Sequence record: PZ445420.1
From: a phage
Length of the DNA stretch: 58,073 bases
Reading direction: 5' to 3' (one strand)
Shown here: piece by piece, positions 43,644-56,428 of the stretch
How positions within the stretch are numbered: position 1 is the first letter of the stretch
Layout of the letters: each line of letters starts with the position of its first letter
Position numbers and translations under genes: made by a program
The notes under the pieces: generated by a model
The model's input: only the letters and a program-made list of their open reading frames with translations
The model's database searches: none
What the model was told of the DNA's origin: nothing

Positions 43644-43922
43644 TCATTTGCTGACACGTATGGCTCTACCTGTTAAGAAGGTGTATCCACAGTGCCGCAT
43701 TAAGTCACGTTCTTCTATTACACTTCGTAACTGGCGTGACAGCGTTTCATAGTAAGGACGGGCCTCGTTCTTACTAATAGCTAAAGCATAGGCGAACAGT
43801 TGCTCCGAGTCAATACGATTAGACTTGATTCTTTTGATTGCCTGCTCAATTCCTGGGAACTCTTCATCCTGGTATAGAGCACCGTACACAATTTTGATAG
43901 CTGCTAGATTGTAACTGGACAT
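43644..43922 (-). CDS. hypothetical protein
   Basis: 92-aa ORF. Confidence 0.35.
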   Translation of the reverse strand: MSSYNLAAIKIVYGALYQDEEFPGIEQAIKRIKSNRIDSEQLFAYALAISKNEARPYYETLSRQLRSVIEERDLMRHCGYTFLTGRAIRVSK

Positions 43923-52442: not shown

Positions 52443-52630
52443 AATGCAATCTCCCTTCGGGTGAGGCGGGCGCGGAACCCGTGTCCCGCTTAAAAACCCC
52501 CTTAACCCTACGCAGTTATAGTATGACAACAGGGTATCAGATGCAACTATTATCTGCATTATTTTAGAACTTTTTTAGTTGTGTTTCATAATAATAACAT
52601 CCGGGACTATACGGTAGATGGTGTGCCGGA

Positions 52631-52696
52631 AATACCAGGTAGCGCGAGCGTGCTGAAAATACCAGGTAACAGCACGCGCCGAACATACCAGGTAGC
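52631..52696. repeat. three direct repeats ATACCAGGTA(A/G)C spaced 26-28 bp
   Basis: Copies at about 52631, 52659, 52685 in non-coding region. Confidence 0.6.
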
Positions 52697-52825
52697 ACAT
52701 ACATAGACAGCACATAGTGGGCAGGTGGATAGTAACAGATGCAATTATACTGGACAGTACAGTATAGTCATGTAATAGATAGCACACTAATCAAATAAAA
52801 AATAATAACGCGTGTAACAATAAAC

Positions 52826-53047: not shown

Positions 53048-53335
53048 ATGTTCGTTCTGGCTTTCAGTAGTGCAATATGGCTAGGTATCAACTGGATCCT
53101 TGCAATTATATTAGGTCTTGTGATCTGGTATGTACCGTTCATGCGTTACGCTGTTATCATTTCGCTTGTATATTTAGTTGTTAAACATTTCTTCGTATGG
53201 TGTGTATGCAATCCACAAGCTGCAAACATCAAACGTAACAAAGCAAACTTCTTTAGTGTACTTATTTTAGGTTCACTAATTGTGTACGCATGGCTGCTCG
53301 GTGCGGAGAACTTAGGCTGGTTCACGTTGCCTTAA
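53048..53335 (+). CDS. small integral membrane protein (three predicted TM segments)
   Basis: 95 aa, very hydrophobic; GAGGAG RBS; first gene of rightward block. Confidence 0.45.
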   Translation: MFVLAFSSAIWLGINWILAIILGLVIWYVPFMRYAVIISLVYLVVKHFFVWCVCNPQAANIKRNKANFFSVLILGSLIVYAWLLGAENLGWFTLP

Positions 53336-53420
53336 TGTGGTCACTATTTGTTGCGGCCGGCTATGTTAATCAACTTGCGTATCCTGTTATAGTTATTCCG
53401 TTAACGTTAAAGGGGTCTAT

Positions 53421-53786
53421 ATGAACGAGAATATAGTTAAAGCCTGGTCTATGCTGAGGCCACAGTTGAAAGACGATCGCATCGCTTTTACTTTGTGCCC
53501 GAATAATGATTATCGCCGACAGCTCGAAGAAGTGTTGCGCGAAGATCCTGAATTCGTTCGCTGTGTGCAACTGTCGCGCGAGTCATCTGTGGTGCAGTTT
53601 GATCGTTTCCATCTTCGTTTGGTTGCTCATCGCAGAGACTCGTATGAAGACACTGTTATTCGTACGAGCGGCTTTCATTGTGATATTGCCATTCTTGACT
53701 GCGAATTAAGTATTGAGCAGAAACAGGACTTATATAATCTCGCTCGTGAACGTCATGGTGAACTATTAATTGTGGAAGTGCAATAA
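53421..53786 (+). CDS. hypothetical protein
   Basis: 121-aa ORF. Confidence 0.4.
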   Translation: MNENIVKAWSMLRPQLKDDRIAFTLCPNNDYRRQLEEVLREDPEFVRCVQLSRESSVVQFDRFHLRLVAHRRDSYEDTVIRTSGFHCDIAILDCELSIEQKQDLYNLARERHGELLIVEVQ

Positions 53787-54124
53787 TGGCTAAAGATATC
53801 GTTATTCCGAAAATGTATTGCCAGCTTCGTGATACTTTATTACAAAGCGGTTGGATTATTAGTCATAGTGACGTGAATGACACATATCTTGTTCTTATAC
53901 CACCTGACGGGACGATATCCTGCATCCTGCATTATATGCCCGAAGCGACGACGGTTTATCCGAACGGGTCGTTCTTACTTCGTTTACGCTCCGATACATG
54001 GAAGATCCAGACGGATACCTGTGCAATTGACGAGAATACCAGTAAAGAATTTATTCGCAAGCTGACTCAGCTGAATAAAATCTATGAGCATGTTAAATTT
54101 GATTTGTTTAAGGAAGTCTTCTAA
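53786..54124 (+). CDS. hypothetical protein
   Basis: 112-aa ORF, ATG overlapping upstream stop. Confidence 0.4.
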   Translation: MAKDIVIPKMYCQLRDTLLQSGWIISHSDVNDTYLVLIPPDGTISCILHYMPEATTVYPNGSFLLRLRSDTWKIQTDTCAIDENTSKEFIRKLTQLNKIYEHVKFDLFKEVF

Positions 54125-54564
54125 TGCTTACTATGAAAGATCCAATTAACCACATCACTCAACCAAATATCATGGCTTGTATTCCGACATGTCTGGCTAT
54201 GTTGACAAGTAAAGATCCTGTTGACGTAGATAGAGAGTTTACTCCTCTTTACAATGAATGTTTACTGGATGTCGCCAGTTATCTATACCGTTACAATATC
54301 TTTGCTCAACCTCACCTGACTGCTGGTATTCATCAAATCCGACCTGGGCGCTTGTATCTTGCGACTGTACCCTCTTTGCAGTTACCTGGACTTTTCCATC
54401 AGATCATTATTGACGCTCGCTTCGGTGATGTTAAGGTATACGACCCATGTAAAGGTCTGCAAGGGAAACAATACTATTCCTATGACCACGTTGCAGAGGG
54501 TAACGATCTGGCGTATCCTCTGCGGTCTTTCCTGATTGATTACGAAATTATATTGCCGGGGTGA
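54124..54564 (+). CDS. hypothetical protein with conserved-looking Cys/His/Asp (possible cysteine peptidase-like)
   Basis: 146 aa; NIMACIPTCLAML ... FHQIIIDARF; assignment speculative. Confidence 0.3.
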   Translation: MLTMKDPINHITQPNIMACIPTCLAMLTSKDPVDVDREFTPLYNECLLDVASYLYRYNIFAQPHLTAGIHQIRPGRLYLATVPSLQLPGLFHQIIIDARFGDVKVYDPCKGLQGKQYYSYDHVAEGNDLAYPLRSFLIDYEIILPG

Positions 54565-54567
54565 TTT

Positions 54568-54921
54568 ATGGGCTTGCAACGTTTTGACAATGCAGAACTC
54601 GCGTGTGAATTTGCAAAGCGCAAGTTTGCTAAAACAGGTACGCCGCGATGCGTACACGCGGCTATTGGGCAAAATGGGGCAAAGTATTGGTACGTTGGTA
54701 CAGTAGCTCAGATCAAGCGAAGATTCGCGACTACGCCCGAAATGCGCCGGCTTGGGTCCCCTACACTTGTGCGAAACAGGCAATTGGATAAAGAGGAAAT
54801 TTATCAATTTCTTAGGAATTACACTGGTAAAGAGAATAGATTTCAGGTTGCAGCGAAAGAGTTTAATATCGGTCTTTCCACTGCTTATAAAATTTATCAC
54901 ATATATGGGCGTTTAATATGA
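54568..54921 (+). CDS. hypothetical protein
   Basis: 117-aa ORF; overlaps next gene. Confidence 0.4.
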   Translation: MGLQRFDNAELACEFAKRKFAKTGTPRCVHAAIGQNGAKYWYVGTVAQIKRRFATTPEMRRLGSPTLVRNRQLDKEEIYQFLRNYTGKENRFQVAAKEFNIGLSTAYKIYHIYGRLI

Positions 54922-55412
54922 CCGCAATTGCTTATCGTAATGGTATATTGGCAGTAGATCGTCAGGTTACATGGGGTAATATTGCAACAACTACGAATAA
55001 AGTTCATACTGTTGATATCCCAGGAATTGGACTGTGCCTTGTTGCAATGTCTGGTAAACTACGTCCTGTAGATGATATTGTAGAACATCTAAAAACTACC
55101 TCGCGAGGACGTAAAGAGCCTTTCTCTGATTTAATTCCGGATTCACGTTATGGTATTGCGGTGACGCAGGAACGTGTCGTGTATCCCATCTACGGCGATG
55201 GTAAATTGGGTCTACCAGACACTAATGAATTTATTGCGGAAGGTAGCGCGTTTGAGTTCTTGATGGGTACAATGGCGGCAGGTTGCGGAGCAGAAGAGGC
55301 TGTAAGATTGGCCTGTCATTACTGCGATAGCTGTGGTCAGGGTGTTGACTTCTATGACGTAGCTTATACTCTTAAGATGGCTCAGTGTACAGACGAGGAG
55401 GAACCATTTTGA
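54918..55412 (+). CDS. HslV-like / proteasome beta-type Ntn-hydrolase peptidase homolog
   Basis: 164 aa; N-terminus MTAIAYRNGILAVDRQVTWGN...NK parallels E. coli HslV [25 protein letters not shown]...KK (Thr after Met, D-x-Q-x-T-x-GN, Lys about 30); later IAEGSA parallels IAIGSG. Confidence 0.55.
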   Translation: MTAIAYRNGILAVDRQVTWGNIATTTNKVHTVDIPGIGLCLVAMSGKLRPVDDIVEHLKTTSRGRKEPFSDLIPDSRYGIAVTQERVVYPIYGDGKLGLPDTNEFIAEGSAFEFLMGTMAAGCGAEEAVRLACHYCDSCGQGVDFYDVAYTLKMAQCTDEEEPF

Positions 55413-55600
55413 AGAAGCCTAAGACTGGTCTGTTCCTTTGTATTGGTGGACCTTTTGACGGTAAGCGTATACGCTTAACAACATCGGATCTATATCCAAG
55501 TTCCTCCGTTTTCTCTGTTCCATCCTATAAAAATGGTGAGAAGGGGAAATACGTTTGGAATGATGAAATTCGAAATAGTGTAATCTGGAGAACATCATGA
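55409..55600 (+). CDS. hypothetical protein (TTG start 7 nt after GAGGAGG; ORF track gives 55385..55600)
   Basis: about 63 aa; start overlaps stop of HslV-like gene. Confidence 0.3.
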   Translation: MKKPKTGLFLCIGGPFDGKRIRLTTSDLYPSSSVFSVPSYKNGEKGKYVWNDEIRNSVIWRTS

Positions 55601-55824
55601 GTGATCCTTCTGACGCACAATTAGCGGCTGCAAGAGTGTATATGCGCGGAGCTGCCGCTGAGATTGAGGCCTTGCCACAATTCGAGAAGCACGTACAGCA
55701 ACTTGAAGATAAATTCAAGGCTCTTAAAGACTTAGGGGATAACAAGGACGCCATAGCATTTCTTTTTGCTCTTCAATACTTTGTCATGGGGTCTGATGAG
55801 AAACTATGTTCCTTAGAAGAATAA
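55597..55824 (+). CDS. hypothetical protein
   Basis: 75-aa ORF. Confidence 0.35.
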   Translation: MSDPSDAQLAAARVYMRGAAAEIEALPQFEKHVQQLEDKFKALKDLGDNKDAIAFLFALQYFVMGSDEKLCSLEE

Positions 55825-56306
55825 TTGGTATTGTTGCACCTTGGATACCACTTGTCATAATTGTTATTCTAGCCAACTGGGCTTATGACAATGCCATAGA
55901 ATCAGCTAGAAAGGAGGGTTTCGATGCCGGTGTGTCGTACCAAAAAGAAACTCAGAAAGCGGTTGATTTCGAGGAGGAGAAACGAAGAGCGTATGAGAAA
56001 GATACTATCGAACGTCAGTACAGATCTCGTATTGAATCTTTGGTTGCCGATCTTAATAATTATCGCGCTACTAATGACAGGTTGCACAACGAAATCGCAA
56101 CCGTCCGTAAGTACCTCGGTGACGCTACCGGCCCTCAGCCCGACAGCAAGACAACCGCCCAGATCGCCCGTGTGCTCACCGAGCTGTATTCAGAAAGCGT
56201 CACAGAATACAGACAAGTGGCAGAAGAGGCTGAAAAGTATCGTATTGCCGGCGAGCAGTGCGAACTACAATATGATGCAATGCGAAATCCGCGTAAAGCA
56301 AATTGA
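55806..56306 (+). CDS. i-spanin (Rz-like)
   Basis: 166 aa; N-terminal TM segment IIGIVAPWIPLVIIVILANWAY then charged coiled-coil; o-spanin-like ORF in +1 frame. Confidence 0.6.
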   Translation: MFLRRIIGIVAPWIPLVIIVILANWAYDNAIESARKEGFDAGVSYQKETQKAVDFEEEKRRAYEKDTIERQYRSRIESLVADLNNYRATNDRLHNEIATVRKYLGDATGPQPDSKTTAQIARVLTELYSESVTEYRQVAEEAEKYRIAGEQCELQYDAMRNPRKAN

Positions 56307-56337
56307 TAAACTGCAAAGTCCTTGTCGGGTTGCGTAA
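55993..56337 (+). CDS. o-spanin (Rz1-like lipoprotein) overlapping i-spanin gene
   Basis: Alternate frame; signal-like MRKIL...LPILIIIALLMTGC with lipobox Cys (codon 56083-56085) followed by Pro/Ser-rich segment. Confidence 0.55.
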   Translation: MRKILSNVSTDLVLNLWLPILIIIALLMTGCTTKSQPSVSTSVTLPALSPTARQPPRSPVCSPSCIQKASQNTDKWQKRLKSIVLPASSANYNMMQCEIRVKQIDKLQSPCRVA

Positions 56338-56428
56338 CTAAACGTTCAATCTTAATTGCACATAATTGATTGTGTACATCTGATAATTCAACTATGCTCT
56401 ATTCGGTTTAACTGAATGGAGCTTTTTT

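Follow-up and report, generated by a model that had tools for sequence, protein, structure and literature searches.

Predicted C39-Type and Proteasome-Like Peptidases in a Coupled Gene String of a 9g-Like Escherichia coli Phage

Introduction

The stretch of phage DNA analyzed here (sequence record PZ445420.1; 58,073 nucleotides, hereafter the window) carries six tightly spaced ORFs, termed ORF1 to ORF6, at positions 53421–55600. A sequence-only reading of the window had singled out one of them as HslV-like and another as a possible papain-like cysteine peptidase, and had suggested that two peptidase-like genes amid other genes represented a proteolysis module for host takeover or anti-defence. 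The locus therefore raises the question of whether the six ORFs are genuine genes, whether two of them specify peptidases and, if so, whether the two peptidases belong to one dedicated machine or act separately in a block of mixed function. The phage is a Nonagvirus, i.e., a 9g-like E. coli phage that shares 90–93% nucleotide identity with its relatives of the 9g/JenK1/FritzHoffmann kind.

Extent and Conservation of the Gene Block

All six ORFs are found on the + strand at the coordinates given below, and the junctions from ORF1 to ORF6 have spacings of -1, -1, +3, -4, and -4 nt. The rightward coupling proposed earlier is thus retained, but the operon is not limited to six genes: the coupled string extends over 53048–56337 and comprises 11 genes with no gap larger than 3 nt, which are those for a 95-aa membrane protein, a 29-aa ORF, ORF1 to ORF6, ORF7, and the i- and o-spanins at its end. 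The first gene of the string (53048..53335, + strand) encodes a 95-aa predicted membrane protein (phrog_21392) and is found in 4 of the 8 Nonagvirus copies compared (dN/dS 0.07). The 29-aa small ORF (53335..53424, + strand), which is annotated in FritzHoffmann and SE1, bridges this gene to ORF1 with overlaps of 1 nt and 4 nt. On the other side, ORF7 (55597..55824, + strand; 75 aa) joins the block to the i-spanin gene by a 19-nt overlap. The spanin genes (55806..56337, + strand) consist of that for the i-spanin (55806–56306) and, embedded in it, that for the o-spanin (55993–56337, with the lipobox LLMTGC), as judged from matches to DUF2514 and phrog_312 and from the annotation of FritzHoffmann. 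Immediately 5' of the endolysin ATG, a 12-bp hairpin is followed by T6 (56396..56422, + strand); it has the same bases in 8 Nonagvirus loci, and its stem is retained with altered bases in L005. This terminator-like and/or RBS-occluding element bounds the unit. We suggest that the region would be the promoter-proximal part of a rightward Nonagvirus transcription unit with presumed middle-to-late timing.

The six ORFs are more than chance reading frames, because they are intact in most genomes, have low dN/dS values and recur in the same order, in line with the earlier reading of the block as six genes. Each of them is uninterrupted in most of the 8 Nonagvirus genomes compared, and all six are under purifying selection in these genomes, with dN/dS values from 0.04 to 0.20 (0.12 for ORF1, 0.04 for ORF2, 0.20 for ORF3, 0.09 for ORF4, 0.12 for ORF5, and 0.08 for ORF6). 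The complete order from ORF1 to ORF6 is found again in a more distant clade of ~60-kb phages at roughly 25–55% identity. In the 9g record, a 1-nt indel breaks the reading frame of the ORF5 homologue, and the same holds for ORF2 in SE1. Judging from these frameshifts, ORF5 and ORF2 are possibly dispensable; the frameshifts may also be sequencing errors. Single-sequence searches of all six proteins against Pfam, NCBIfam, PADLOC, and the PDB returned nothing significant.

ORF3, a Predicted C39-Type Cysteine Peptidase

ORF3 (54124..54564, + strand; 146 aa) is predicted to be a stand-alone papain-fold cysteine peptidase of the C39 type. Its predicted structure is confident and shows a compact papain-like fold, to which the C39 peptidase domains, and among them the bacteriocin-processing peptidase domains, are closest. 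A fold search of BFVD with ORF3 returned uncharacterised phage proteins and one phage protein labeled "Peptidase C39 domain." Among 67 relatives of ORF3 (35% mean identity), the only invariant residues in addition to Met1 are Q13, C19, H92, and D107-P108, and the catalytic residues align in register with those of LahT150. The predicted catalytic set consists of Gln13 (oxyanion), Cys19, His92, and Asp107(-Pro108), in the arrangement of C39 peptidases, with the Cys on the N-terminal helix behind the Gln and with the His and Asp-Pro on beta strands. The papain-like triad proposed from the sequence is therefore correct in its first two members and not in its third. In the segment NIMACIPTCLAML, Cys19 is invariant throughout the wide family and Cys23 in the close family only; in FHQIIIDARF, His92 is invariant, while Asp97 is conserved among close relatives only. 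The invariant acid of the family is Asp107, found in the motif YDP.

Pfam Peptidase_C39 matches 17 of the 67 relatives (best E 2.4e-6); ORF3 itself is below the Pfam threshold and has no Pfam match even at E ≤ 1. The family (phrog_4049) has members in Queuovirinae, Ackermannviridae, Samunavirus, Vibrio phages, and other groups, with a total of 695 representatives at 50% identity. Among the relatives listed, nearly all are 135–160 aa long, and the fused domains of the longer ones provide no functional pointer. ORF3 has neither a signal peptide nor a membrane segment. Neither the unit nor the sister genome as annotated has an ABC transporter gene, and no canonical GG leader is found among the phage ORFs. 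Of the genes in the block, ORF3 evolves the fastest (dN/dS 0.15–0.20), although these values do not support positive selection. Its N-terminal lobe is mosaic: the N-terminal 66 codons are divergent with saturated dS, which points to recombination.

We propose that ORF3 would be a C39-type cysteine endopeptidase that is soluble in the cytoplasm and, judging from its residues and model, apparently active. Cys19 of the N-terminal helix would attack the scissile bond, His92 and Asp107 would activate it, and Gln13 would form the oxyanion hole. By analogy, the cut would most likely be site-specific, after small residues (Gly-Gly-like) and in one or a few targets, rather than bulk degradation.

The spanin/endolysin/holin cassette next to the block suggests another role, in which virion proteins are processed or ORF3 serves as a cell-wall endopeptidase together with that cassette. 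We consider such a role in morphogenesis or lysis very unlikely. The head module consists of a portal, a scaffolding protein (phrog_206), and an SPP1 gp13-like capsid protein, and the SPP1/P22-type head design works protease-free, so that we reject a role in capsid maturation from the content of the head module. The missing signal peptide and membrane segment and the C39-type Q/C/H/D set argue against a lytic function of ORF3, as does the presence of a separate endolysin in the phage. Homologues of ORF3 elsewhere are also found in other surroundings: that of Kuttervirus lies between the genes for topoisomerase II subunits, and that of Samunavirus lies near one end of the genome record amid small hypothetical genes. 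The frameshifted ORF5 homologue of the 9g record is a further argument against either process. Homology searches, which could have placed the ORFs among ordinary structural or lysis genes with no peptidase fold, did not do so.

ORF5, a Predicted Proteasome Homologue of the PPH Kind

ORF5 (54918..55412, + strand; 164 aa) is the gene that was first recognized as HslV-like, and this recognition was right: it encodes an N-terminal-threonine hydrolase of the proteasome/HslV type and of the PPH kind, with the proteasome-like Ntn fold of the HslV/BPH group and with the catalytic Thr, Asp, and Lys and the oxyanion Gly conserved. The key residues are Thr2 (exposed once Met is removed), Asp14, Lys28, Gly46, and Gly109-Ser110, and the N-terminus, M-T-A-I-A, has no propeptide. 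In both structure and sequence, its best matches are HslV, BPH, and beta subunits. The sole family match is PHROG 1040 ("peptidase HslV family"), and neither Pfam nor NCBIfam gave a match at E ≤ 1. In the model of ORF5, a single helix (48–58) is followed by coil (59–76) up to the next strand and the second flanking helix (H2) is absent; the profile alignments have a gap of about 13 residues opposite the second helix of HslV. The model also shows an extra C-terminal helix and an acidic tail. Longer relatives of ORF5 possess a C-terminal extension resembling RPC. Neither ORF6 nor ORF7 is such a domain that has been split off, as they have no similarity to it.

A published survey of proteasome homologues reported no co-occurring AAA+ partner and no informative gene neighbourhoods. 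Likewise, neither the unit nor the annotation of the sister genome revealed an AAA+ unfoldase or an hslU-like gene. We suggest that host methionine aminopeptidase would expose Thr2 as the N-terminal nucleophile, which Asp14 and Lys28 would assist. With HslV and BPH as models, ORF5 probably forms rings and cuts peptides or unfolded polypeptides with no need for a phage ATPase. Both its residues and its model indicate that ORF5 is apparently an active protease.

For ORF3 and ORF5 alike, the term peptidase is one that we infer from residues and nearest folds, because the same folds host other chemistries. Papain-fold enzymes with the same residues may be deamidases, acyltransferases, or isopeptidases (e.g., papain-fold toxins, BtrH, and phytochelatin synthase), and proteasome homologues may be ligases (e.g., connectase). 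ORF3 might accordingly be a deamidase, acyltransferase, or isopeptidase, and/or ORF5 a transpeptidase or ligase like connectase. Such non-proteolytic functions are, in our judgment, highly improbable, given that both proteins have true peptidases as their top matches (C39 domains in the case of ORF3, and HslV, BPH, and beta subunits in that of ORF5) and retain the full, conserved proteolytic residue sets.

The Other Genes of the Block

In sequence comparisons, ORF1, ORF2, and ORF6 are conserved clade-restricted ORFans. ORF1 (53421..53786, + strand; 121 aa; phrog_17838) has orthologues with 19–26% identity. It is called a "potential sigma factor" in the 9g record, a label that we reject: its NCBIfam match has 14.6 bits against a cut-off of 307 (E 0.018), and searches for sigma-70 regions 2 and 4 found no Pfam sigma domain and, with the ORF1 profile against the PDB, no sigma factor, the only match there being a weak one to a CpaE receiver-like domain (E 0.11). 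ORF2 (53786..54124, + strand; 112 aa) is the most strongly constrained of the ORFans, with 34 residues invariant in the alignment of 8 orthologues. Its homologues form 28 clusters, all of 112–118 aa and clade-restricted, and they occur on contigs of up to about 60 kb. No match to ORF2 was found in the PDB or Pfam. A PADLOC match to RmrT (E 0.0065) is at chance level after multiple testing, and the ORF2 profile gave clade-restricted homologues only.

ORF6 (55409..55600, + strand; 63 aa; phrog_12090) has a TTG start in the phage of PZ445420.1. The TTG at 55409 sits six nt past a GAGGAGG ribosome-binding site and is the start annotated in sister phages; the mechanical listing of ORFs had begun at a GTG at 55385. 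The motif C-x-GGPF-x-G is invariant in the alignment of ORF6. Its GGPF was considered as a double-glycine-leader site and rejected, as Pro follows GG and the motif looks structural.

ORF4 (54568..54921, + strand; 117 aa) is predicted to consist of an N-terminal domain and a C-terminal helix-turn-helix (HTH). ORF4 itself matches only HTH_7 (E 0.086), below the curated threshold, and the HTH domain of gamma-delta resolvase aligns with it over the full length of that domain (E 0.037). Its orthologues match HTH_28 (3.6e-5) and Mor (7e-4), in both cases under the curated thresholds and with only the HTH covered. The Klebsiella orthologue is annotated as a "late transcriptional activator" and matches phrog_532 at 2e-4. 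In Hafnia phage yong3, the slot of ORF4 is occupied by a different, 124-aa HTH gene. These similarities suggest that ORF4 is probably a Mor/C-like HTH transcription activator, which would probably switch on the late genes downstream. With a probable activator among its genes, the block is functionally mixed.

Distribution and Role of the Two Peptidases

The genes for ORF3 and ORF5 are found within about 1.1 kb of each other in all enterobacterial Queuovirinae sampled, i.e., in Nonagvirus, the Klebsiella/L003 clade, and Seuratvirus, including Hafnia phage yong3. They are near-adjacent in both Nonagvirus and Seuratvirus despite an identity of about 32%. ORF1, ORF2, ORF4, and ORF6 are replaced or missing in Seuratvirus, in which hhalign detected no homologues of ORF1, ORF2, or ORF4. 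Further analyses revealed the C39-like gene without a PPH-like partner in Kuttervirus, Samunavirus, and Vibrio Queuovirinae, and the PPH-like gene without a C39-like partner in Aeromonas, Erwinia jumbo, Erythrobacter, and three metagenomic phages. As other phage lineages carry one gene or the other singly, the pairing is not obligate, and we propose that the two peptidases would be accessory functions acting independently. Of the proteolysis module first suggested, the two peptidases are thus retained, and a joint module is not supported. It should be noted that the lasting adjacency of the two genes amid gene replacement could, contrary to independence, reflect functional coupling.

Such coupling might take the form of a two-step pathway, in which C39-like clipping or tag removal exposes a target to the PPH ring within a single module for host takeover or counter-defence, where ORF2 or ORF6 might serve as an adaptor or a substrate. 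The proximity of the pair across the enterobacterial Queuovirinae sampled, despite sequence divergence and neighbour turnover, is consistent with this pathway, and so are the translational coupling of the peptidase genes with their neighbours and the rapid evolution and mosaic N-terminal lobe of ORF3. A precedent is reportedly found in Anbu operons, which are said to place a proteasome homologue beside a transglutaminase-like peptidase. We nevertheless regard a coupled pathway as unlikely. Many lineages carry one gene without the other, and vertical descent alone predicts adjacency inside one syntenic subfamily. The phage, moreover, lacks ATP-grasp and other tagging enzymes, ubiquitin-like genes, and double-glycine-leader proteins, and the absence of informative neighbourhoods from the published survey also speaks against coupling.

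A more specific reading, which we rate as quite improbable, holds that the stand-alone C39-type enzyme is a Gly-Gly "clippase" or deconjugase that phages direct against host conjugation (e.g., the tagging of virion proteins by ubiquitin-like Bil-type systems, or Cap2-type conjugation) or against protease-activated immunity, or else the cutter of one key host factor, and that in enterobacterial Queuovirinae it is teamed with the PPH ring, which destroys the released or exposed products. If so, the N-terminal lobe of ORF3, with its mosaic make-up and fast evolution, would record an arms race over target recognition. Neither PADLOC, with one weak match at chance level, nor the literature linked either enzyme to host takeover or anti-defence; the literature searched offered no experiments on phage members of either family, and the JSS1, HIDEN-SEQ, and Bil papers had no bearing on them.

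The best explanation as a whole, to which we give roughly even chances, is that the ORF1–ORF6 block is functionally mixed and houses no dedicated proteolysis machine. This explanation builds on the reality of the genes, the folds, the conserved catalytic residues, and the distribution of the two enzymes; the activity, oligomeric state, substrate class, timing, and host-directed role are what we infer from them. Most plausibly, the two peptidases would be aimed at host proteins, in proteostasis, takeover, or counter-defence.

Both peptidase families are widespread in phages. BASEL phages of E. coli K-12 carry the two genes side by side, which, together with the strict conservation of the catalytic residues, makes them a tractable system for phage intracellular proteases. 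Their roles may turn out to lie in the shut-off of the host, in the control of proteostasis, or in counter-defence. If the roles are ordinary, i.e., those of dispensable accessory functions, the gain is in annotation: phrog_4049 becomes a family of C39-like cysteine peptidases, ORF4 a probable late activator, and ORF1 no sigma factor.

Comparison with Known Systems

Similar to Mor/C of phage Mu (PF08765), ORF4 has a predicted C-terminal HTH after a distinct N-terminal domain, is of similar size (117 aa vs. ~120–140 aa), and is encoded upstream of late genes; it differs in that its matches are sub-threshold and confined to the HTH. Anbu operons comprise the Anbu proteasome homologue, a transglutaminase-like cysteine peptidase, an ATP-grasp ligase, and an alpha-E protein. 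By comparison, ORF1–ORF7 and the annotated sister genome contain neither ATP-grasp nor alpha-E domains, the cysteine enzyme of the block belongs to the C39 rather than the transglutaminase type, and the Ntn protein is of the HslV/PPH type.

The two kinds of enzyme, C39-type peptidase and PPH, have already been described, and ORF3 and ORF5 are further members of them. The closest known C39 domains are those of PCAT/AMS ABC transporters (PCAT1, LahT150, and ComA; MEROPS C39, PF03412). In contrast, ORF3 is stand-alone, cytoplasmic, and phage-borne, without a fused or adjacent ABC transporter and without a double-glycine-leader substrate in the phage. Its family, with about 700 representatives that PHROGs labels "unknown function," is distinct from the transporter domains.

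Compared with HslV (ClpQ; T1B) of the HslUV protease, ORF5 lacks one of the two apical helices, and its Thr-Asp and Thr-Lys spacings are shorter (T2, D14, and K28 vs. T1, D17, and K33). PPH (reference sequence WP_042125023.1) has been described as the first proteasome homologue that is truly viral. ORF5 is a predicted member, assigned from the features described for PPH: like PPH, ORF5 is small, phage-encoded, of the HslV/BPH group, with Thr right after Met, the catalytic Asp, Lys, and Gly conserved, and H2 missing, and it is encoded by a tailed phage of Proteobacteria, here an E. coli Nonagvirus. ORF5 differs from PPH in its length (164 aa vs. about 140) and in its extra C-terminal helix and acidic tail. 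Furthermore, whereas the PPH paper reported no gene neighbourhood, ORF5 has a C39-like gene as a conserved near neighbour.

Extent of the Gene String and Its Place on the Map

The six + strand genes that had been proposed as one unit (ORF1-ORF6, at 53421-53786, 53786-54124, 54124-54564, 54568-54921, 54918-55412 and 55409-55600) were all present exactly as claimed, with junctions of -1, -1, +3, -4 and -4 nt, and are real genes. ORF6 starts here with TTG at 55409, preceded by a GAGGAGG ribosome-binding site, and the equivalent position is its annotated start in sister phages. Against eight sister genomes, dN/dS was 0.12 for ORF1, 0.04 for ORF2, 0.20 for ORF3, 0.09 for ORF4, 0.12 for ORF5 and 0.08 for ORF6. 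Phages of ~60 kb from a more remote clade share the full gene order, with identities of roughly 25-55%.

The coupling of a single rightward unit was confirmed, but its limits at ORF1 and ORF6 were not, as the unit extends on both sides. Upstream, on the + strand, are a gene for a 95-aa membrane protein, from 53048, and a 29-aa ORF between that gene and ORF1; downstream, on the same strand, are ORF7 (55597-55824) and the i-spanin and o-spanin genes. From the membrane protein gene to the spanins, no gap exceeds 3 nt. The first true break is a hairpin at 56396-56422 directly before the endolysin gene, which consists of a 12-bp stem (GCTCTATTCGGTT/TAA/CTGAATGGAGC) and T6 and ends 6 nt 5' of the endolysin ATG. 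The hairpin is unchanged across 8 Nonagvirus genomes, and in a divergent relative (L005:7411) its stem is preserved with altered bases. The sole GGAG 5' of the endolysin start sits within the 3' arm, and this hairpin could be both the terminator of the upstream unit and an occluder of the endolysin ribosome-binding site.

The 4-kb stretch around ORF1-ORF6 was 90-93% identical to 17 phage records, which include several phages present under two accessions. All 17 are Nonagvirus-type siphoviruses of the subfamily Queuovirinae with 7-deazaguanine-modified DNA, among them 9g, JenK1, JenP1/2, FritzHoffmann, SE1, BRET and ESCO3. The window opens at the large terminase gene, which puts ORF1-ORF6 at the opposite end of the map, directly past a divergent control region that has the leftward replication/early arm on one side and the rightward arm on the other. 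The control region carries three direct repeats of ~23 nt each (52622-52697), spaced 26-27 nt apart with an exact ATACCAGGTA core that has no further copy elsewhere in the window; the array looks like a set of candidate regulator-binding sites. In the leftward arm, a 92-aa ORF (43644-43922, - strand) matched phrog_17339, "protease," and is annotated in FritzHoffmann as a putative cysteine protease. This label looks unfounded, because Pfam support was absent (best E 0.025, to unrelated families).

The C39-Like Peptidase and Its Neighbors

The ORF3 family numbered 695 representatives in an exhaustive profile search; nearly all are stand-alone proteins of 135-160 aa. Among 67 diverse relatives (35% mean identity), only Met1, Gln13, Cys19, His92, Asp107 and Pro108 were invariant, and Gln13, Cys19, His92 and Asp107 are in register with LahT150. 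They match a C39-type enzyme, with Gln13 as the predicted oxyanion residue and Cys19, His92 and Asp107 as the predicted triad. Pfam Peptidase_C39 was matched individually by 17 of the 67 relatives (best E 2.4e-6). The sequence-only reading, which had suggested a papain-like triad, was thus correct in its Cys-containing segment and His; the acidic residue comes from YDP instead of FHQIIIDARF, whose Asp is conserved in close relatives alone. The GenBank record of ESCO3 already labels its homologue a papain-like cysteine protease; PHROGs lists the family (phrog_4049) as of unknown function.

Within the block, ORF3 also diverges most. Over its C-terminal 80 codons it is nearly identical to the JenK1, BRET, FritzHoffmann and 9g copies, and dS in codons 1-66 (54124-54321, the N-terminal helical lobe) is saturated against all eight sister phages. 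Since dN/dS against the sister genomes stays at 0.15-0.20, the pattern points to a putative mosaic allele produced by recombination; positive selection was not demonstrable. A 1-kb metagenomic contig carried the closest full-length match (96%).

The C-terminal 43 residues of ORF4 aligned end to end with the gamma-delta resolvase HTH domain (E 0.037), in agreement with a weak HTH_7 match. Its orthologues matched HTH_28 (3.6e-5), the Mor activator family (7e-4) and phrog_532, "late transcriptional activator" (2e-4), an annotation that one orthologue carries. These matches agree but are sub-threshold, and ORF4 is probably a Mor/C-like activator. In Hafnia phage yong3 (Seuratvirus), a 124-aa protein with a C-terminal HTH (L031:3402-3776) is encoded between the C39-like and PPH-like genes, the slot and architecture of ORF4, with no sequence similarity detected to the ORF4 profile; KurtStettler has no counterpart. 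ORF2, the most constrained gene of the block, had no detectable relatives outside its own phage clade, and in the small protein ORF6 the motif C-x-GGPF-x-G is invariant. A sigma-factor assignment for ORF1 was not supported. Seuratvirus KurtStettler encodes a YspA/cpYpsA-related SLOG-domain protein (L006:1927-2319; Pfam YAcAr E 1e-17) a few genes 5' of its C39-like gene, roughly ORF1's place in Nonagvirus; no relationship to ORF1 was detectable.

One Module or Two Enzymes

The reading of two genes of the block as proteases is backed by their fold, by profile matches and by residue conservation. Each is of a kind already known, C39-type peptidases for ORF3 and the PPH proteasome homologue for ORF5, and some records already label them accordingly. 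In every enterobacterial Queuovirinae phage examined, the two genes are at most about 1.1 kb apart. Seuratvirus keeps this proximity at only about 32% identity to the window copies, with ORF1, ORF2, ORF4 and ORF6 missing or replaced. A coupled pathway of the two enzymes could be read from this adjacency; it is, however, proximity inside one syntenic subfamily that descent can explain, and we therefore regard such a pathway as unlikely. Neither the phage ORFs nor the sister-genome annotation included a partner ATPase, a tagging enzyme, a ubiquitin-like protein or a substrate with a double-glycine leader. Beyond the enterobacterial Queuovirinae the genes part company. In Kuttervirus, the topoisomerase II subunit genes flank the C39-like gene; in Samunavirus it sits amid small hypothetical genes close to an end of the genome record; and in Vibrio Queuovirinae it adjoins an endonuclease gene. 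The PPH-like gene has no C39-like companion in Aeromonas, Erwinia jumbo, Erythrobacter and three metagenomic phages. By tblastn, 171 phage records had the C39-like gene and 80 had the PPH-like gene.

In public records, the 9g homologue of ORF5 (L015 2319-2812) and the SE1 homologue of ORF2 (L014 1187-1526) are each split by a 1-nt indel; these are either sequencing errors or natural knock-outs of viable phages, which would point to dispensable genes. The head module contains a scaffolding protein and a capsid protein of the SPP1 type, which makes a capsid-maturation role for the peptidases unlikely. The proteolysis-based host-takeover or anti-defense module proposed earlier is hypothetical. 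A Gly-Gly-directed clippase acting with a PPH ring against host conjugation- or protease-based defense appears improbable. The likeliest picture, with about an even chance, is a mixed middle/late operon whose products are two accessory peptidases acting independently, a late activator and three proteins specific to the lineage.

Comparison with Known Proteasome Homologues

Fuchs, Alva and Lupas (2021) described PPH as a proteasome homologue of ~140 residues from tailed phages and their hosts, within the HslV/BPH group, and RPC as PPH plus a C-terminal extension; neither an AAA+ partner nor an informative neighborhood was found for these homologues. ORF5 (164 aa, phrog_1040) fits PPH as they described it, and the RPC description suits its relatives of 275-308 aa in Aeromonas and metagenomic phages. 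Aeromonas phage 4L372XY has two adjoining proteasome-like genes (L010:2932-4328; 183 and 275 aa), both with Thr as the second residue (TCIIAL and TTIAYK after the start codon), which suggests a possible two-subunit phage proteasome homologue. The N-terminus of ORF5, M-T-[AT]-I-A, is invariant, and its Thr is thus the predicted N-terminal nucleophile once Met is removed, as in HslV. Among the homologues, PPH and RPC are the ones distinguished by the lack of H2 (Fuchs, Alva and Lupas, 2021), and the predicted model of ORF5 likewise has a single helix where H1 and H2 lie.
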